Shown one piece after another: positions 4,524 through 13,656 of a stretch of DNA of 37,640 nt. A program made the position numbers and the translations under genes. Positions within the stretch are counted from its first letter, which is position 1. Each line of letters starts with the position of its first letter. The notes under the pieces are model-generated. The model did no database searches. It worked only from the letters and a program-made list of their open reading frames with translations, and had not been told where the DNA came from. This DNA comes from a virus: UHGV virus genome UHGV-1707198; one strand, given 5' to 3'.

Positions 4524-4540
4524 TCAAGGATTTTTTGGAC

Positions 4541-7500
4541 ATGGAACAGTTCAAGAAGAAAAAATTACCGCTTCTTATTGCCGGTGCTGGTGGCAAGAAA
4601 AGTAAAAGCTCCAGCCGTACCCCGGTTGAAGCTGATGATACTGTCAATTCTCGTGCTATGGCAGCCATCCTCGACCTTCTTGGCGAGGGGGTTATCGGTG
4701 GCCTGGTAAATGGCGCAAAGTCGATCTTCATCGACGATTTACCGATCTTGAATGAAGATGGCTCTTCCAACTTCAGCGGTATTACATGGGATTTTCGTGA
4801 CGGCTCACAAGATCAGACGCCAATGGCTGGTTTTGATTTTGTCGAAACGCCTAAGTCCGTAAATATTCAGCTTAAAAAAACACACGACGTTACGGTTTCA
4901 ATCGATAACGATGAAGCTGATCGCGTTCGTGTCATCATGAAATTCCCCTCTTTACGTAGCGTTGATAAAAGCTCTGGCGATACAAATGGCACTACGGTGA
5001 AGTACAAATTCCAGATCGCCAACGCAGACGCAACATTTTCTGATGTAGTGGCAGAAGGTGAGAAAAGCGTTGATATCACGCTAACGGCAAAGAAAACCGG
5101 CGTGTATTACCGTAGCTATGAGCTGAAACTGCCTAAGCCTGGTCGTGCATACAAGGTTAGGGTGATTCGTCTTACAGATGATAATAGTAGCCAGTACCTC
5201 TACAACGACACATGGGTTGATTCCATCGGTGAGATTGTCGACACGCCAATGAACTACCCTAACTCTGCTCTTGTTGGCTTGAAGGTCAATTCAGAGCAGT
5301 TTGGTAGCACAATGCCTTCCCGTTCGTATTTGGTGCGCGGTATCAAAATCCGAGTACCGTCAAACTACAACGAATACACCAATACTTATGTCGGCGTATG
5401 GGACGGTACTTTTAAGCTGTTGTCTTCTTCAAACCCTGCGTGGATTCTCTACGATTTGCTTACCAATACTCGGTATGGTCTTGGGCAATTTGTGTCGGAA
5501 TCCATGATTGACCTCGGCCAGCTCTACCAGATTGGTCGATATTGTGACGAAGAGGTCGATGATGGCTTTGGGGGTAAAGAGAAACGCTTTGCAATCAATA
5601 CGCAGATCACCAGTCGACAAGACGCATACCGATTAATTCAGGATATTGCCGGTGCATTCCGCGGCATGGTGTTTTGGGCTGGTGGCATGGTTAACATCAT
5701 GCAGGATAGCCCATCAGATCCGGTAATGATGTTTACCAACTCCAACGTCAAAGATGGACTGTTTACCTATAAAGGTTCTGCGCGTAAAGATCGCCCATCC
5801 GTTGCGCTCGTAACCTACAACAACAAGGAGGACGGTTATAAGCAAAACATCGAGTACGTTGAAGATCAGGACGCAATGCGCCGTTATGGTGAGCGTAAAA
5901 CAGAAGTCGTAGCATTTGGATGTACAAGCCGAGGCCAGGCTCACCGAGTTGGTTTGTGGCTTTTGTATACCGCCAGAATGGAGTCGGATGTAATTACATT
6001 TACTGCCGGCTTAGACGCCTCATTTCTGATGCCCGGTGAAACCGTTCTGATTCAGAACAAATATCGTGCAGGTAAACGTAACTCCGGTCGAATTGTGGAG
6101 TTTACCAAAAACAGCATCACTCTCGATGCGCCTGTGTCGTTAGCTAAAAGCGGCAGCTTTATTCGGATATTGAATCAGGAAGGCAAAATCGTTGAACGCG
6201 ATGTTCTTGAAACTGGCGAAAACATAACAAAGGTTACGTTTTCAAAAGCCCTGTCGTCAGCGGAAACGCCTGTTTTGAACGGTGTCTGGACAATTACAGA
6301 ACCAGATCTCGAACCTATGCGCGTTCGCATCGTTAACATCGCGCAGGGGGAAACGCCGGGTAGCTTTGACATCACCGCTGTTGAGAACAATCCGTCTAAA
6401 TATGAGGCAATCGACAATGGTGCAACGCTGATCCCGCAGAATACGACGGTATTGGACCCAACTTACTCCAAGCCATCTAATCTGCAAATCACTGAAGGGA
6501 CTTATCTCTCAAGCCCGGGCAACCTGTCAGTAAAACTGACTGCAACATGGGAAGGAAAATCTCCAGAGTATTGGATCAGTTGGCGACGTTCTGATGAAAA
6601 CAATGTATCGAACTGGCAATCGGCGCGTGTAACCGAAGAGCAATACGAAATCGTTAATGTCGCGGAGAATGGACGCTACGACTTCCAACTGTATGCGGTT
6701 TCATTCAACGGTAAAAAAACAGAGATTATCAGTACCGTTTATCAGGTGTTGGGCACAATGACACCGCCGGATGCCCCAACGTCATTAACGGCCGTTGGAG
6801 ACTATCGTAATGTGATACTGAATTGGGTTAATCCAGATTCGGTAGACCTTGATCACATTAATGTTTACGCATCCCAGACCAACAATCTGGATACGGCGAA
6901 ACTGATCGCAGAGTCTGCAAGCACCACCTTTACACATGCTGGTCTTGGGGATAGCGAAACGTGGTATTACTGGGTTCGAGCATCGAACAAGCGAGGTATG
7001 TTAAGCCCTCCGAACTCAAACTTGGGTACAGAGGCGACAACTCGCGATGTACTGTCGTTCCTGGCTGGCAAAATTACATCTTCCGAGCTTGGTCAGGCTC
7101 TGCTTGAGGACATCAACAGCAAAGCCTCTCAAGAAGCAGTTGACGAGTTAAATGAGCATATCAACCAGAGCGTCGAATCTTTGGAGGGGTCGGTAAACGA
7201 CGTTAAGGAAGATATAGCTGAATTAGATAAGCAGTTCAGCGATAACCTCGCGGGTTTTGAAATAAAATTCAACGAGCGTAGCGATGCTTTGGAGAACGCA
7301 CAAACCGAGCTTAAAGGTGAGGTTTCGGCAACGATCGACAAGGTCAATGAAGCGTTTGAAAAAATTGATGCTACTGATGCTGCAATTGTTGAAATCGAAA
7401 ACACCGTATCTGAACACGATAAAGCTCTCGCTAATACAGTCGAGGCAATAAAGGCTGCAAGAGATGAAGCGGCGGCTCTTATTGCTAAGGAAAGCGAGGC

Positions 7501-9265
7501 TCGTGTTGAAGGCGATGCTGCAAACGCTAAACAACTGGAAGTGTTGCAGTCAACGGTAGAGGAAAGCTCCGCTGCCGTTGAAGAAATGAAAAAGACGGTT
7601 GCAGAGGTCGATCGTGCCAGTGCAGAACTGACTACGAACATTGAGGCGTTAGCCAAAACAAATATTGACCTGGCTCTTCGTCAAGATGAAGACCAGCACA
7701 AGCAGATGGTCAATAACGCGAAGATCGCAACAACACAGAAAACCTTTGCTGATGATATGTCTGCAATGGCCACGAAGGTTGAGGAAATTCGCGTAGAAAT
7801 TGGCGAAGACATTAAGGCCAGTATTCTGGAAGAGTCCACCGCTCGTGCCGATGGCGATGAAGCGTTGGCAAAGCGTGTCACTCAGCTGCAATCTAAGTTT
7901 GAAGGAGATATCAGCGCGGCGATTAGTACAGAGCAGGAGGCTCGCACATCTGCCGATGAAGCTCTGACGACACAGATCACTCAGCTTGAGTCGAAAGTAA
8001 GCAACGATATCGTCGCAGCTATTAAGGAAGAGCAAGAAGCCCGAGCAACGGAAGATTCGGCTCTGGCAAGCCAGATCACCCAACTTCAGGCAAAGGTTGA
8101 TGATGATATTTCTGCTGCAATACGTAGTGAGCAGGAGGCCCGAGCAAGCGGGGACTCTGCGTTAGCCAAACAAATAAACCAGCTTCAGTCAAAGGTTGAC
8201 GGTGATATATCCGCTGCCATCACTCAGGAGCAGGAGGCCAGAGCAAGTGCTGACCAGGCGCTCTCACGAGAAATTAACAGCCTGCGAGCACAAACCGGAA
8301 CTGATATTGCCGCAGCGGTTGCTGTAGAGACAAAGGCAAGGACTGATGCCGATAGTGCATTGTCCACTCAGATTTCGTCTCTTACAGCAAAAGCTAATGA
8401 TCTCGAGGCATCTCTTGCCAGAGAAACAACGGCTCGTGCTGATGGTGATACCGCTTTAACAAAAGAGGTTTCAAGTTTAAAAGCACAGACAGCGAAAGAT
8501 ATTAGTGCGGCCGTTGCAGTTGAAACGCAGGCTCGAACTGATGCTGACTCGGCGTTGTCGTCTCAGATCACCAAGCTGACCTCTCAATACAAAGAGGATA
8601 TTAAAGCGGCTGTAGCAACCGAAACGAAAACGCGTACAGAGCAAGATGCTGCATTGGCGACTCAAATCACAAACTTAGAGTCTCAAACGGCAGCCAACAT
8701 TTCCGCGGCGGTAACAACTGAAACGACAGCGAGAACGCAGGCAGATAATGCTCTGAGTGGGCGAATCGATACTCTGAAAGCAGAGGTGGATGGAAATACC
8801 GCGACAATTCAACAGCAGGCAACAGCTATTGCTGATACCAACAAAAAAGTGTCAACCGCGTGGACGTTGAAAATGGAAACTTCAACGAGCGGAGGGCAGA
8901 AGTATGTTGCTGGTATTGCGCTTGGTATCGACACCACTGGCCTTTCTCAGTTTTTGGTGCAGGCTGACAGGTTTGGTTTGGTCAACTCTGTTAACGGGAA
9001 GATCACCACGCCATTTGTTATCGAAAACAGTATCGCCTATATGAATGGTGCGTATATCAAGGATGGCACAATCACCAATGCAAAAGTAGGCGATCTGCAA
9101 TCTACCAATTTTGTTAGCGGTAGATCTGGATGGCGGTTCGGCAAAAATGGAACGCTTGAGATCAACGGTAATAGCGGGGGTAATGGGCGACTGGTCATAA
9201 ATGGTCAGCGGATTGACGTTTATGACGATAACAACGTCCTACGAGTAAGAATTGGCCTTCTGTAA
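4541..9265 (+). CDS. host specificity / central tail fibre protein, lambda gpJ-like, with extended C-terminal repeat shaft
   Basis: About 1574 aa from the ATG at 4541 (ORF track begins at TTG 4535); AAGGA ribosome-binding site upstream; large N-terminal region typical of J-family tip proteins; follows the I homologue. C-terminal third is tandem repeats. Confidence 0.85.
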   Translation: MEQFKKKKLPLLIAGAGGKKSKSSSRTPVEADDTVNSRAMAAILDLLGEGVIGGLVNGAKSIFIDDLPILNEDGSSNFSGITWDFRDGSQDQTPMAGFDFVETPKSVNIQLKKTHDVTVSIDNDEADRVRVIMKFPSLRSVDKSSGDTNGTTVKYKFQIANADATFSDVVAEGEKSVDITLTAKKTGVYYRSYELKLPKPGRAYKVRVIRLTDDNSSQYLYNDTWVDSIGEIVDTPMNYPNSALVGLKVNSEQFGSTMPSRSYLVRGIKIRVPSNYNEYTNTYVGVWDGTFKLLSSSNPAWILYDLLTNTRYGLGQFVSESMIDLGQLYQIGRYCDEEVDDGFGGKEKRFAINTQITSRQDAYRLIQDIAGAFRGMVFWAGGMVNIMQDSPSDPVMMFTNSNVKDGLFTYKGSARKDRPSVALVTYNNKEDGYKQNIEYVEDQDAMRRYGERKTEVVAFGCTSRGQAHRVGLWLLYTARMESDVITFTAGLDASFLMPGETVLIQNKYRAGKRNSGRIVEFTKNSITLDAPVSLAKSGSFIRILNQEGKIVERDVLETGENITKVTFSKALSSAETPVLNGVWTITEPDLEPMRVRIVNIAQGETPGSFDITAVENNPSKYEAIDNGATLIPQNTTVLDPTYSKPSNLQITEGTYLSSPGNLSVKLTATWEGKSPEYWISWRRSDENNVSNWQSARVTEEQYEIVNVAENGRYDFQLYAVSFNGKKTEIISTVYQVLGTMTPPDAPTSLTAVGDYRNVILNWVNPDSVDLDHINVYASQTNNLDTAKLIAESASTTFTHAGLGDSETWYYWVRASNKRGMLSPPNSNLGTEATTRDVLSFLAGKITSSELGQALLEDINSKASQEAVDELNEHINQSVESLEGSVNDVKEDIAELDKQFSDNLAGFEIKFNERSDALENAQTELKGEVSATIDKVNEAFEKIDATDAAIVEIENTVSEHDKALANTVEAIKAARDEAAALIAKESEARVEGDAANAKQLEVLQSTVEESSAAVEEMKKTVAEVDRASAELTTNIEALAKTNIDLALRQDEDQHKQMVNNAKIATTQKTFADDMSAMATKVEEIRVEIGEDIKASILEESTARADGDEALAKRVTQLQSKFEGDISAAISTEQEARTSADEALTTQITQLESKVSNDIVAAIKEEQEARATEDSALASQITQLQAKVDDDISAAIRSEQEARASGDSALAKQINQLQSKVDGDISAAITQEQEARASADQALSREINSLRAQTGTDIAAAVAVETKARTDADSALSTQISSLTAKANDLEASLARETTARADGDTALTKEVSSLKAQTAKDISAAVAVETQARTDADSALSSQITKLTSQYKEDIKAAVATETKTRTEQDAALATQITNLESQTAANISAAVTTETTARTQADNALSGRIDTLKAEVDGNTATIQQQATAIADTNKKVSTAWTLKMETSTSGGQKYVAGIALGIDTTGLSQFLVQADRFGLVNSVNGKITTPFVIENSIAYMNGAYIKDGTITNAKVGDLQSTNFVSGRSGWRFGKNGTLEINGNSGGNGRLVINGQRIDVYDDNNVLRVRIGLL
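7823..8800 (+). repeat. about ten tandem 99-bp (33-aa) repeats inside the J-like gene
   Basis: Repeating protein unit of the form ISAAIxxEQEARAxxDxALxxQITQLQSKVxxD, read directly from the translation; heptad-like, suggesting a coiled-coil shaft. Confidence 0.75.
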
Positions 9266-9357: not shown

Positions 9358-12300
9358 ATGTGGTACAGGGAAGGTACTATCACATTTACACAGGGCAGCA
9401 ATACTCTGGTTGGGGCAGGGACAGCCTGGAACGTAACAGCTAATGGTGTGTTGCCGGGGATGATCGTCATTGGCCCCGACAATAAGCTGTATGAGATCAA
9501 GCGCGTAACCAGTGATACGAACATTGTTCTCTCAGAACCCTATACCGGCGAAACTCAGTCTGAAGTTCCGTGCCGAATCATTACGACCTATGAAGGCGAC
9601 TTAACACAGTTTAGCGCGCGCTTTACAGCACTAATGTCGCGTATGTCGGCTGATTCCAAGTCCATGCGCAGTTGGTTGACTGCTCTGGATGAGGTGACAA
9701 TCGAGCGTGAAGACGGTACAGAAGTGACCGTTAAGCCGCTAATGCAGATCGTCAACGAGCACAACGAAAACGTTGAGTGGTATAAAAATAACACTGACGC
9801 GATTGATGCTGCTGGCGACAAAGCTCGTGAGGCGGCGGCCAGTGCTGCCGCAGCAGCAGAAAGCGCCAATACCGCTGGAGAAAAAGCCTCTCAAGCGTCT
9901 CAAAGTGCATCCGCTGCAGAGTCCTCAAAAAGCGCGGCGGCCACCAGTGCCGGTGCCGCGAAAACGTCTGAAACGAATGCTGCAGCGTCACAAAAATCTG
10001 CAGCCACTTCTGCATCCACCGCGACCACGAAGGCGTCAGAAGCTGCCACCTCAGCCCGGGATGCGGCGGCCTCAAAAGAGGCAGCGAAATCATCAGAAAC
10101 GAGCGCAGCCTCGAGCGCCAGTAATGCCGCTTCCTCGGCAACGGCGGCAGGAAATTCCGCGAAGGCGGCAAAAACGTCCGAGACGAACGCCAGGTCTTCT
10201 GAAACGGCAGCGGGACAGAGCGCCTCGGCTGCGGCAGGCTCAAAAACAGCGGCTGCGTCGTCTGCCAGTGCCGCGTCAACAAGTGCCGGGCAGGCCTCAG
10301 CCAGTGCCACCGCCGCCGGAAAATCGGCAGAAAGTGCCGCATCATCTGCTTCAACAGCCACAACGAAGGCTGGCGAAGCCACTGAACAGGCCAGCGCAGC
10401 AGCGAGGTCTGCTTCCGCAGCGAAGACATCCGAAACGAACGCGAAAGCGTCGGAAACCCGTGCAGAATCCTCAAAAACGGCAGCCGCATCGTCCGCCAGT
10501 TCGGCAGCGTCATCGGCATCATCTGCGTCTGCTTCAAAAGATGAGGCGACCAGACAGGCGTCAGCAGCGAAGGGCAGCGCCACGACGGCATCCACGAAAG
10601 CAACAGAGGCGGCAGGCAGTGCGACGGCAGCATCTCAGAGCAAAACTGCTGCTGAATCCGCTGCGACCCGTGCGGAAGCTGCTGCTGATCGTGCTGAAGA
10701 GATTGCCGGTGCAGTTGCGATGGAAGACGCAAGCCTTACAACTAAAGGTGTTGTGAAACTTAGCAGTGCTGTCGACAGCACCAGTGAATCGCTGGCCGCA
10801 ACGCCAAAAGCAGTTAAAGTAGTCAATGACAATGCGAACAGCAGGGTGCCATCTAACCGAAAAATTAACGGGAAAGCACTGACTGCGGATATCACATTAA
10901 CGCCGAAAGATATTGGTACTTTAAATTCAATAACGATGTCTTTCTCTGGCGGGGCCGGGTGGTTCAAACTGGCTACTGTTACAATGCCACAAGCGAGTTC
11001 CATCGTTTACATCGCATTGATTGGTGGCGCTGGTTACAACGTCGGCTCCCCACATCAGGCAGGCATTTCAGAACTGGTTCTACGAGCAGGCAATGGAAAC
11101 CCCAAAGGGATTACAGGTGCTTTGTGGAAGCGTACAGCTGTCGGATTAACGAATTTCGCCTGGATCAACACATCCGGCGATACATATGATATTTACGTTG
11201 AAATTGGCAATTATGCGACGAGTGTAAATATCCATTGGGATTGTACTGCAAATGCGTCAGTTTCTGTTTATACATCGCCAACATATTCAGCGAGTAAGCC
11301 TTCCAGCGTTACCGATGGTGTTGTTTATACGATGTATAGCACACATCAGAAACCGACGCCGTTAGATATTGGAGCACTGCCAACAACCGGAGGAACAGTT
11401 TCAGGTCCGTTGTCTGTTACTGGTGGGATCACCGGAACATTAAATGGTAATGCAAGTACAGCAACGAAATTGCAGACGGCAAGATCTATCGGTGGAGTTG
11501 GTTTCGACGGTTCTGCAAATATCAACCTTCCAGGTGTAAACACTACGGGTAATCAGAACACCACTGGTAATGCTGCAACTGCTACAAAACTTCAGACTGC
11601 AAGAAAAATATCCGGTGTTCCATTTGATGGTTCTACTGATATCACTTTAACCGCTGCGCATGTTGCCGCTTTCGCAAGAAGGGCAACAGGGTCATATGCG
11701 GATGCTGATGGTGGCGTGCCGTGGAATGCTGAATCTGGTGCTTACAATGTAACTAGAACAGGCGACAGTTATATTCTTGCCAACTTTTATACCGGTGTAG
11801 GTAGTTGCCGTACGCTTCAAATTAAAGCTCACTATAAAAATGGTGGTCTGTTCTACCGTTCCTCAAGAGATGGCTATGGTTTTGAAAGTGGTTGGGAGCA
11901 GGTTTACACGACTGGATTTATGCCTCAGCCGGCTGATATAAACGCACCAACCGCTGCCGCTGGATGGTTAAATAGTGGTAACGGAACGGCATTTACGACT
12001 GCTCAATTTATAACTTGGCTAAACAATCAGGGGGCATTTACAAACAAACATTGGATCGCACGGTGCTCATGGACTTACGCCAACAATAATTATATAGACG
12101 ACACTGGTTGCGGTAGGATCGATCTATCTGGTTCCGTGATTGAGGTGTTTAGTAATAAGGCAACAAGCCACTACACTATTCGTGTTACAACGACAACAAC
12201 ATCAGGTCATGGTGGTGTTAATAATGCGGAATTTATTTATGTGTACAATGGGAGTGATTATGCGCCAGGCTGGCGTCGTTCTTATAACACTAGAAACAAA

Positions 12301-13656
12301 CCAACAGCTTCTGATGTAGGAGCATTACCGCTTTCAGGTGGCACATTATCTGGAGGGTTGACGTCTTCTGGTGAGATCGTTTCAAAATATGCAAATGGTT
12401 TCCGCATTGCTTACGGTAACTACGGGTTCTTTATCCGTAATGACGGCGGCAGCACATATTTCATGCTAACAGCATCAGGAGATACGTTAGGTTCATGGAA
12501 CAGTTTGCGACCGATTATAATTAATAATAGCAGCGGTGTTGTGTCTATTGGTAATGGACTAAATGTTACTGGTGGCGTAAATGGTAGCTTGAATGGCAAT
12601 GCTTCAACAGCTACGAAGTTGCAAACAGCGAGAAACATCAATGGTGTTAAGTTTGATGGTTCAGGTGATATCAATATTAATACATTGGTTTCTCGTGGTC
12701 GAGTTACGGCTTTAAGCGGTTCTACTCAAGGTACTGCTGGCATTCAAATGTACGAGGCGTACAACAATAGCTACCCGACCACGTATGGCAACGTATTGCA
12801 CATGAAAGGTGCGAGTGCTGCTGGTGAGGGCGAGTTGCTTATTGGCTGGAGTGGTACGAGCGGTGCACATGCGCCGGTTTTCATTCGCTCCAGAAGAGAT
12901 ACCACTGATGCGGCATGGTCAGCGTGGGCGCAGGTATATACCGCTAAGGATTCAATCCCTGGTGTGAATACAACCGGTAATCAGAATACTACTGGTAATG
13001 CCGCAACAGCCACAAAATTGCAGACAGCAAGGAAAATTGCTGGTGTGGCGTTTGATGGCTCTGCCGATATTACTTTGACTGCGGCTAACCTTAATGCTTA
13101 TACGAAAACAGAGGTAACAAACCTTCTAAGTTCCTATGCAAGCAGATCATCACTGACAGGCTATAGTGGCAACCTGGATATTATTGCTGAAACACTGGTT
13201 GTCAAATCAGGCGGTAGTGGAGGGTTTGCTATATGGGATATTGGCACAACTACTAGCGGTGCCAATATGTACATTGATCCAAACCCAGGTATCAATACAG
13301 TTTGGCGTTCAACATCTTCAAGGCGCTATAAAAAGGATATTGAAACATTACAAGATCGATATGCTGATGAACTTTTGTCATTAAGACCTGTTTGGTATCG
13401 TTCAATTTGTCGAGGTGACCGAAAGGATTGGGGGTATTACGGCCTTATTGCTGAAGAGGTTGGTGAGATTGCCCCGCAATATGTCCATTGGCGTGAACCA
13501 ACAAATAATGATTCTCCAGGAGATATTTCCTCAAATGGTATGGTCGCTGAAGGAGTGATGTATGAGCGTTTGGTTGTACCACTCATTCATCATATTCAGC
13601 AATTGACCAAAAGGGTTGAGGAGCTTGAAACGAAGTTAAATTCACCTAAAGAATAA
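9358..13656 (+). CDS. side tail fibre protein with C-terminal S74-type intramolecular chaperone domain
   Basis: 1432 aa; GGAG ribosome-binding site. Ala/Ser/Thr-rich degenerate repeats (KTSETNA, SASAA) at residues about 160-460, like lambdoid Stf-type fibres as I recall them. Repeated GNASTATKLQTARxIxGVxFDGSxDI fibre motifs. C-terminus (DIETLQDRY...GLIAEEVGEIAPQYVHW) resembles the self-cleaving chaperone of T5 pb1 and endosialidase-type fibres. Confidence 0.8.
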   Translation: MWYREGTITFTQGSNTLVGAGTAWNVTANGVLPGMIVIGPDNKLYEIKRVTSDTNIVLSEPYTGETQSEVPCRIITTYEGDLTQFSARFTALMSRMSADSKSMRSWLTALDEVTIEREDGTEVTVKPLMQIVNEHNENVEWYKNNTDAIDAAGDKAREAAASAAAAAESANTAGEKASQASQSASAAESSKSAAATSAGAAKTSETNAAASQKSAATSASTATTKASEAATSARDAAASKEAAKSSETSAASSASNAASSATAAGNSAKAAKTSETNARSSETAAGQSASAAAGSKTAAASSASAASTSAGQASASATAAGKSAESAASSASTATTKAGEATEQASAAARSASAAKTSETNAKASETRAESSKTAAASSASSAASSASSASASKDEATRQASAAKGSATTASTKATEAAGSATAASQSKTAAESAATRAEAAADRAEEIAGAVAMEDASLTTKGVVKLSSAVDSTSESLAATPKAVKVVNDNANSRVPSNRKINGKALTADITLTPKDIGTLNSITMSFSGGAGWFKLATVTMPQASSIVYIALIGGAGYNVGSPHQAGISELVLRAGNGNPKGITGALWKRTAVGLTNFAWINTSGDTYDIYVEIGNYATSVNIHWDCTANASVSVYTSPTYSASKPSSVTDGVVYTMYSTHQKPTPLDIGALPTTGGTVSGPLSVTGGITGTLNGNASTATKLQTARSIGGVGFDGSANINLPGVNTTGNQNTTGNAATATKLQTARKISGVPFDGSTDITLTAAHVAAFARRATGSYADADGGVPWNAESGAYNVTRTGDSYILANFYTGVGSCRTLQIKAHYKNGGLFYRSSRDGYGFESGWEQVYTTGFMPQPADINAPTAAAGWLNSGNGTAFTTAQFITWLNNQGAFTNKHWIARCSWTYANNNYIDDTGCGRIDLSGSVIEVFSNKATSHYTIRVTTTTTSGHGGVNNAEFIYVYNGSDYAPGWRRSYNTRNKPTASDVGALPLSGGTLSGGLTSSGEIVSKYANGFRIAYGNYGFFIRNDGGSTYFMLTASGDTLGSWNSLRPIIINNSSGVVSIGNGLNVTGGVNGSLNGNASTATKLQTARNINGVKFDGSGDININTLVSRGRVTALSGSTQGTAGIQMYEAYNNSYPTTYGNVLHMKGASAAGEGELLIGWSGTSGAHAPVFIRSRRDTTDAAWSAWAQVYTAKDSIPGVNTTGNQNTTGNAATATKLQTARKIAGVAFDGSADITLTAANLNAYTKTEVTNLLSSYASRSSLTGYSGNLDIIAETLVVKSGGSGGFAIWDIGTTTSGANMYIDPNPGINTVWRSTSSRRYKKDIETLQDRYADELLSLRPVWYRSICRGDRKDWGYYGLIAEEVGEIAPQYVHWREPTNNDSPGDISSNGMVAEGVMYERLVVPLIHHIQQLTKRVEELETKLNSPKE
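11532..11660 (+). repeat. intragenic direct repeat copy A (fibre motif block)
   Basis: About 130 bp at roughly 80% identity to 12961..13090; both encode GVNTTGNQNTTGNAATATKLQTARKI(S/A)GV(P/A)FDGS. Confidence 0.7.
12961..13090 (+). repeat. intragenic direct repeat copy B (fibre motif block)
   Basis: Partner of 11532..11660; a third, shorter related copy lies at about 12590..12690. Confidence 0.7.

Follow-up and report, generated by a model that had tools for sequence, protein, structure and literature searches.

Among the closest described counterparts of the protein considered here are the central fibres of the F-type pyocins, which were solved in three 2026 papers (PMC13455828, bioRxiv 2026.02.24.707460, PMC12874032). 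These fibres are trimeric coiled coils on which the side fibres dock at a kink (PMC13455828; bioRxiv 2026.02.24.707460), through an OB domain and a stem helix (PMC13455828). In the F7 pyocin, the homologous coiled coil converts into a β-prism, the tip opens and the tape measure protein is ejected; mutations that block formation of the prism abolish killing, and the same switch has been predicted for 21 of 24 siphophage fibres (PMC12874032). In phage λ, residues 841-861 of a short helical bundle change from helix to β-strands on binding to LamB (PMC11101478), and gp33 of phage T1 has been described as a long α/β-helical fibre (PMC11945409). The window analyzed here, the whole stretch of 37,640 nucleotides of the virus genome UHGV-1707198, is an SSU5-like Escherichia coli phage-plasmid and encodes a J-like protein with a long tandem array:

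4535..9265, + strand: gene for the J-like tip attachment protein or central tail fibre, 1576 residues, from the list of open reading frames (ORFs)
7808..8794, + strand: tandem array of ten 33-residue units, residues 1092-1420, the repeat-built helical shaft and putative fold-switching segment, delimited by its periodicity and invariant residues

It is well supported that the array region forms a helical shaft in the central fibre and that this shaft is a homologue of those in the pyocins and in T1, and the best explanation of its design, by analogy with the F7 fibre, is that it probably acts as a metastable spring that switches fold, which appears to be the most likely mechanism. Residue numbers are counted from the TTG at 4535, where the ORF list starts the gene; it should be noted that the start annotated in relatives, the ATG at 4541 (MEQFKKKK...), is probably the true one.

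The array, laid out on E-x-x-A-R anchors, consists of ten head-to-tail units, nine of 33 residues and one, unit 6, of 32. The self-identity of the protein at an offset of 33 is 0.49, as compared with at most 0.20, whatever the offset, in 1000 residue shuffles, and that of the DNA at an offset of 99 is 0.53, as compared with a maximum of 0.36 in 300 codon shuffles. Periodicity is therefore far above that of the shuffles at both levels, and an earlier note, made from the sequence alone, which had placed about ten tandem 33-residue repeats at 7823-8800, was correct in their number and within 15 nucleotides in their position. It also spoke of tandem repeats at the nucleotide level, to be recovered by tandem-repeat finding on the gene, and this was an overstatement. 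The mean pairwise identity among the ten units is 48% in amino acids and 52% in nucleotides, the longest identical in-register stretch between units is 12 nucleotides, the units have their own counterparts in relatives, and the copies have diverged too far for Tandem Repeats Finder, which returned no 99-nucleotide period even with the minimum score set to 30; offset-identity statistics were used in its place. The array is a protein-level repeat, obvious in the protein and only statistical in the DNA.

The consensus of the unit is DISAAIxxExxARxxADxALxxQIxxLxxKVxx, in which A4, E9, R13, D17, A19, L20, and L27 are invariant across the ten units of the window. In a set of 169 distinct units, drawn from the window and from relatives, E9 and R13 never vary, D17 is conserved in 95%, positions 2, 6, 20, 24, and 27 are hydrophobic, and positions 4, 12, 14, 19, 21, and 29 are occupied by small residues in at least 99%. 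The hydrophobic core positions of each unit (I2, I6, L20, I24, L27, and V/T31) have an average spacing of 3.65 residues, and the hydrophobic moment of the array peaks at this same period, equivalent to nine core positions per 33 residues, and not at the heptad value of 3.5. A strict design of three hendecads (3 x 11) was dropped, given that the periods in relatives range from 31 to 39 (32 being the commonest) despite the 3.65 of the window. By analogy with the F7 pyocin, E9, R13, and D17 may form a ladder of buried i/i+4 salt bridges. A static coiled coil would not need conserved small residues outside its core, and the constraint on these residues is hard to explain for a static rod. Pfam has no match in residues 860-1420, and NCBIfam has no model for the array.

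He et al. describe the pattern SxSxxMxxLxS, in which acidic residues at M are paired with an Arg four positions off (PMC12874032); the residue classes used here are a reading of the percentages in that preprint. The 329-residue array contains 27 matches to the pattern, as compared with a shuffle mean of 5.6, and none of 2000 shuffles reaches 27. The placement is regular, with a reverse match at unit position 4 and a forward match at position 19 in all ten units and a forward match at position 12 in six of them, and the acidic residues E9 and D17 each lie four residues from R13, on either side of it. The shaft immediately upstream (residues 860-1091) shows no enrichment, with 6 matches, a number reached by 119 of 2000 shuffles. 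The layout is also that of F7: in an AlphaFold2 model of the monomer, from an alignment of 80 sequences, a single uninterrupted helix at residues 1225-1406, with a predicted local distance difference test score (pLDDT) above 95 over most of its length, lies directly upstream of β-strands at residues 1410-1418, 1421-1433, and 1439-1450. This alignment consists mostly of short C-terminal fragments and was therefore unused as a census of units; a gradient of β-propensity toward the distal end is weak and was likewise unused.

The array and distal domain together (residues 1269-1548) align to residues 909-1193 of the F2 pyocin fibre (25vf_A; domain E = 3.7e-23), which stands in here for the F7 fibre, absent from the PDB matches, and the array plus distal stretch aligns to T1 gp33 (9l9p_S; E = 5.6e-21). 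A hidden Markov model (HMM) built from the ten units matches, in the whole PDB, only T1 gp33 (E = 1.2e-7), residues 1033-1062 of the F2 pyocin fibre (E = 1.2e-4), and DEV gp56; the likeness is thus a specific one, beyond what a generic coiled coil would show. From these solved homologues, the shaft is expected to be a trimeric coiled coil. A search with the unit profile among 1.84 billion representative proteins gave 2032 proteins at E ≤ 0.001, and each of the top 150 has 4 to 31 matched stretches. Ten units is thus an unremarkable number, and the shaft module is widespread, though matched by no Pfam or NCBIfam family. The 14 top-scoring proteins that were read, some J-like and some hub-less, have 9 to 25 unit copies by count, with periods of 31 to 39 residues. 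In some proteins among P0105-P0136, the units are interleaved with short modules of the form RVFxQxxxP...GDLWxDxxxxNxxYxWxGxxW.

On either side of the shaft, the protein is composed of parts that are shared with λ J:

4535..7111, + strand: hub and FNIII domains, conserved with λ J, residues 1 to ~859, from alignments to 8iyk_J, 9l9p_S, and 25vf_A
8795..9265, + strand: distal β domain (Phage_Tail_Tip), residues 1421-1576, from Pfam, PDB matches, AlphaFold2, and Foldseek

The PDB matches over residues 16-867 are λ J, T1 gp33, and the F2 pyocin fibre, and residues 22-862 align to residues 3-837 of 8iyk_J (E = 2.4e-127), which indicates a hub of the λ type. In Pfam, the protein matches FNIII-A_GpJ (residues 103-237), Phage-tail_3 (359-522), fn3 (746-825), and Phage_Tail_Tip (PF09327; 1424-1558, E = 1.5e-41). 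The distal domain aligns to residues 839-971 of λ J, which comprise the last part of the helical bundle together with the central straight fibre; its sequence matches in the PDB are 8iyk_J, 8xcj_Z, 9wca_J, 7z4b_EA, and 9ze4_N, and Foldseek on the model returned the SU10 tail tip fibre (7z4b_EA) and the open state of λ J (8xcj/8xci). A receptor-binding domain of the λ type (PF12421 region, residues ~980-1132 of λ J) is absent: the protein ends 18 residues past Phage_Tail_Tip, the alignment to λ stops at residue 971, and the NCBIfam model lambda_TipJ scores 531 bits against a cut-off of 1950. The distal domain, homologous as it is to residues 839-971, is no substitute for the receptor-binding domain. 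The view in the earlier note that the C-terminal part is unlike that of λ J accordingly stands for the array, of which λ has no equivalent, but not for the distal domain, which the two proteins share, the receptor-binding domain alone being missing. Its proposal of an extended shaft displaying a distal domain agrees with the predicted helix and following β domain and with the homology to the trimeric coiled-coil shafts of F-type pyocins. In some relatives (L058-L070; proteins P0009 and P0025), the last ~32 residues of the distal domain are exchanged for a domain of ~170 residues with PF12421, interpreted here as the type found at the C terminus of λ J. This makes the tip a modular structure, present in the window in its short form.

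The array is the last part of a longer shaft, whose upstream portion has features of its own:

7112..7807, + strand: non-repetitive acidic helical shaft, residues 860-1091, net charge −29, no proline
7466..7564, + strand: isolated degenerate unit, residues 978-1010, matched by the unit HMM
7481..7845, + strand: shaft island conserved across genera, in the non-repetitive shaft and first unit, from megablast comparisons with plasmids and phages

The complete proline-free helical shaft has ~560 residues, of which the first ~230 are non-repetitive and acidic and the last ~330 form the array; a map of charge, Gly, and Pro shows no Pro in residues 856-1425 and an acidic character in both segments. 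A single-sequence AlphaFold2 model of residues 826-1135, of low confidence, has helices at residues 851-989 and 995-1134, and the intervening residues 990-994 (RVEGD; nucleotides 7502-7516), at which the pLDDT dips, are the sole predicted helix break in the 560-residue shaft. The break falls inside the isolated upstream unit and recalls the kink at G955 in the shaft of the F2 pyocin, at which side fibres dock (PMC13455828); by this analogy, the kink of the isolated unit is a candidate docking site for a side fibre. The island at 7481..7845 has ~79-82% nucleotide identity in Salmonella, Yersinia, Enterobacter, and Citrobacter plasmids, its flanks no longer align, and it may be a protein-protein interface such as a dock for the side fibre. 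The gene downstream of J encodes a fibre that could occupy such a site:

9358..13656, + strand: side tail fibre, 1432 residues, with Pfam Gp34_trimer and Peptidase_S74
9358..9687, + strand: N-terminal anchor of the side fibre, ~110 residues (MWYREGT...), conserved among those relatives with an array for which the start of the fibre was read

The anchor may attach to the J shaft, for which the upstream part is a plausible site. Its resemblance to the side fibre of the F2 pyocin (25ve_A) is weak (E = 7e-4 with the single sequence and 2.8e-3 with a profile), and relatives that have no array have a different fibre N terminus. Among the relatives that share the anchor, the fibre ranges from 787 to 1647 residues, and unit number does not track the length of the downstream fibre, which is 852 to 1647 residues at 10 units. 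In the window, the side fibre contains an Ala/Ser-rich low-complexity region (residues ~140-470), then the Gp34_trimer domain and a C-terminal S74 chaperone domain. The low-complexity region gives rise to long but spurious ORFs, both in other frames and antisense (9752..10732, 9773..10756, and 9900..10595), and the antisense ORFs over the array, at 7129..7656 and 7649..8083 on the minus strand, are probably by-products of composition.

The number of units varies among relatives, as seen in a census drawn from IMG/VR loci and the representative protein library. There are 10 in the window and in Cyrano, 9 in PhiR41_1, 6 in Yersinia pestis pMT1, 5 in Salmonella SSU5, and 5 in Enterobacter and Citrobacter plasmids; IMG/VR relatives whose distal domains are 62-100% identical have 3 to 11. 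Two E. coli plasmids (L004 and L005), ~97% identical to the window, each lack exactly 99 nucleotides, with different junctions: the first recombined in CAAAGGTTGA, shared by the ends of units 3 and 4, and the second at a GAC shared inside units 4 and 5. In PhiR41_1, there is a hybrid of units 4 and 5. All three one-unit differences fall in the same place:

8006..8302, + strand: units 3-5, the most similar neighbours (66% and 60% nucleotide identity) and site of all three one-unit differences

In-frame change in unit number is therefore real. The expansion and contraction that the earlier note expected do occur, but slowly. Unit number differs in 2 of 57 sampled full-length E. coli matches, and orthologous units across phages are 42-82% identical (mostly 64-82%) as compared with ~48% for paralogues, with no homogenisation; positional counterparts are thus kept across phages, and the turnover of units is slow. 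In giant variants of J from the E. coli plasmid NZ_CP062852 (L008:481-11469, minus strand; 3662 residues) and the Klebsiella phage vB_KpnS_p4727 (L087), the hub is kept and the 33-residue array is replaced by about eight modules, each composed of a short coiled-coil segment and a β domain of ~150 residues. These β domains begin with NxSFExGxxGW, have only a weak ILEI-like match in Pfam, and may be carbohydrate-binding. The plasmid variant retains the same distal domain, and the locus of the Klebsiella phage ends before the C terminus.

In the mechanism proposed for the window, three J chains would form the tail-tip hub and continue as a helical shaft ending in the Phage_Tail_Tip β domain, the shaft being a metastable spring like that of the F7 pyocin, to whose fibre it is homologous; when the fibres touch the cell, the strands at the start of the distal domain would be able to seed the conversion of the coiled coil into a trimeric β-prism. 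Host recognition would be mainly by the exchangeable side fibre, possibly docked on the upstream shaft, and the array would evolve slowly, with one unit now and then lost or gained where neighbours are most alike. The literature on the homologous shafts (PMC12874032) points to a mechanical or fold-switching role over that of a passive display shaft. However, several considerations weigh against a switch. AlphaFold2 returned confident helix only over the array and no β form, although a monomer prediction is for that reason mute on a change of fold, and some of the motif matches could have other causes in Ala-rich amphipathic repeats. Evidence for the switch itself comes from a single preprint, on a bacteriocin and not a phage (PMC12874032). 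The array is twice the length of the 163-residue switching segment of F7, and part of it alone might switch; the unit period of 31 to 39 residues in the wider family means that no single helical register is conserved; and the docking of side fibres depends on marginal E-values (7e-4 and 2.8e-3) and a low-confidence single-sequence model. A rather unlikely alternative is that the shaft is a stable trimeric coiled coil which does not refold and serves only to make the central fibre long enough for its distal domain to reach the outer membrane. The confident uninterrupted helix, the variation in length by complete units (3 to 11 in relatives and as many as 31 across the wider family), which fits a modular spacer, and the description of T1 gp33 simply as a long α/β-helical fibre (PMC11945409) would all agree with this, but in a static rod the six strict small non-core positions and the E9/R13/D17 ladder found in the 169 distinct units would be superfluous, the switch motif is enriched in the array and not in the upstream shaft, the solved homologue switches, and even λ converts its short helical bundle.

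The metastable spring has also to be set against explanations in which the number of units, as opposed to the fold of the shaft, is what matters. The earlier note viewed the array as a hotspot for host-range variation, in which frequent slippage between DNA repeats alters the number of units and hence the hosts that can be infected. Unit counts do differ among relatives from different hosts (10 or 9 in E. coli, 5 in Salmonella SSU5, Enterobacter, and Citrobacter, and 6 in Y. pestis pMT1), and the two 99-nucleotide deletions in 97%-identical E. coli plasmids are independent, but this explanation is very improbable: the units have 52% DNA identity and at most 12 identical in-register bases, Tandem Repeats Finder detects no array, unit turnover is slow by the identity of orthologous units and the 2 of 57 E. 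coli matches that differ, and the array has no receptor-binding features. In addition, identity in the distal domain stays at 89-100% among relatives whose arrays have 3 to 10 units, the exchange of side fibres shows no dependence on the number of units, and the binding of SSU5 to the lipopolysaccharide core is attributed to the tail-fibre protein gp22 (Kim 2014, as cited in PMC12312913). A link between unit number and host range or receptor choice therefore has no support. It is scarcely credible that the array is a multivalent rack on which each unit binds a side fibre or accessory protein, unit number setting the number of appendages; side fibres of F-type pyocins dock on the helical shaft through the OB domain and stem helix, and the N terminus of the side fibre in the window weakly resembles the pyocin anchor, but both pyocin structures show a single kink site and not a periodic series, and the only predicted helix break in the window lies upstream of the array, at residues 990-994.

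If the shaft is a fold-switching spring, an improbable extension is that the number of units is its tunable stroke length or energy store, adjusted to the depth of the surface layer of the host, each 33-residue unit adding a fixed reach as coiled coil and a fixed contraction as β-prism. The pattern behind this idea is that 5-6 units are present in SSU5 (rough Salmonella only) and Y. pestis pMT1 and 9-10 in the E. coli elements, and that possibly glycan-binding modules take the place of the array in some E. coli plasmids and in the single Klebsiella phage-plasmid that was read. Were it true, the near-isogenic plasmids with 9 and 10 units would represent naturally occurring mutants of a molecular spring. 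The source of energy by which non-contractile tails breach the envelope is a live question, and the switch from coiled coil to prism has been shown for one bacteriocin only. The present family offers inducible E. coli phages with clean, countable units, in variants of 3 to 11 and near-isogenic pairs of 9 and 10, and this natural length series, which makes the relationship of shaft length to contraction and infectivity directly testable, is the main value of the feature. There is also a correction to annotation, in that the variable-length segment of genes labeled host specificity protein J is a mechanical shaft and not a receptor-binding surface.

The assignment of the window to a phage-plasmid is based on the J-like gene, which is 95% identical to those of Escherichia phages Cyrano and CMS-2020a; several E. 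coli plasmids of ~110 kb match its 3' part (7000..9265) with 100% identity, and the matches in complete E. coli genomes are all plasmid-borne (212 of 212), from which it is concluded that the window is an SSU5-like E. coli phage-plasmid. The gene of PhiR41_1 has 89% nucleotide identity, only up to nucleotide 2654 of J. The ORFs upstream are identified by Pfam as the tape measure protein (Tape_meas_lam_C), L (Phage_tail_L), and K (JAB and NlpC/P60), giving the gene order tape measure, L, K, I, J, in which the assignment of I comes from the annotation of Cyrano; the J-like gene thus occupies the position expected in a tail module of the λ type (tape measure, M, L, K, I, J). In the E. coli plasmid NZ_CP029421.1 (24710-28226), the IS3-family element ISEc52 interrupts the J gene toward its 3' end, leaving one piece as a "phage tail protein" and the other as a "DUF1983 domain-containing protein," an arrangement suggestive of a defective phage-plasmid.

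Among proteins of known structure, λ gpJ (8iyk, 8xcg-8xck) shares with the J-like protein the hub, the FNIII domains, and a helical bundle between the FNIII domains and the β fibre, but its bundle has no repeats and comprises residues 809-861 only (PMC11101478), and it has a C-terminal domain that binds LamB. The DEV gp56 short fibre (9ze4_N) and the SU10 tail tip fibre (7z4b_EA) have the same type of unit and C-terminal domain but are hub-less podovirus proteins with few units; the role of gp56 in DEV is that of a structural adaptor, through which the receptor-binding proteins are recruited and the tail plug is controlled. T1 gp33 (9l9p_S) has the same architecture, the same type of 33-residue unit (for example, DIQASLTDIREVIATETEALSREIDQLKAQIGD), and a homologous distal domain, but only three or four units approximately, and its C-terminal residues 821-1172 are unresolved in the structure. 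For T1-like phages, separate small receptor-binding proteins encoded beside the J-like gene have been proposed, according to a citation in PMC12892993.

The F-type pyocin central fibres (F7 CFP; F2 PyoF10, PDB 25vf/25vj; PA0641) have a λ-type hub, two FNIII domains, and a long trimeric helical shaft followed by a β-prism/Phage_Tail_Tip domain, with no receptor-binding domain of the λ type, and a side fibre with a weakly similar N terminus is encoded in the same gene cluster. The last units and distal domain align with those of the window, and the E-x-x-x-R salt-bridge and small-residue pattern is shared. The pyocin shaft is, however, shorter (~163-180 residues) and its units are degenerate, whereas the window has ten clean units plus 230 non-repetitive residues; the small tip proteins PyoF11 and PyoF12 are encoded downstream of the pyocin fibre gene, whereas a 1432-residue fibre follows J in the window; and the pyocin is a bacteriocin, whereas the window is an infectious phage-plasmid. 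The array is, in this comparison, a regular and fairly long member of a widespread shaft module with a mechanism that was described in 2026.

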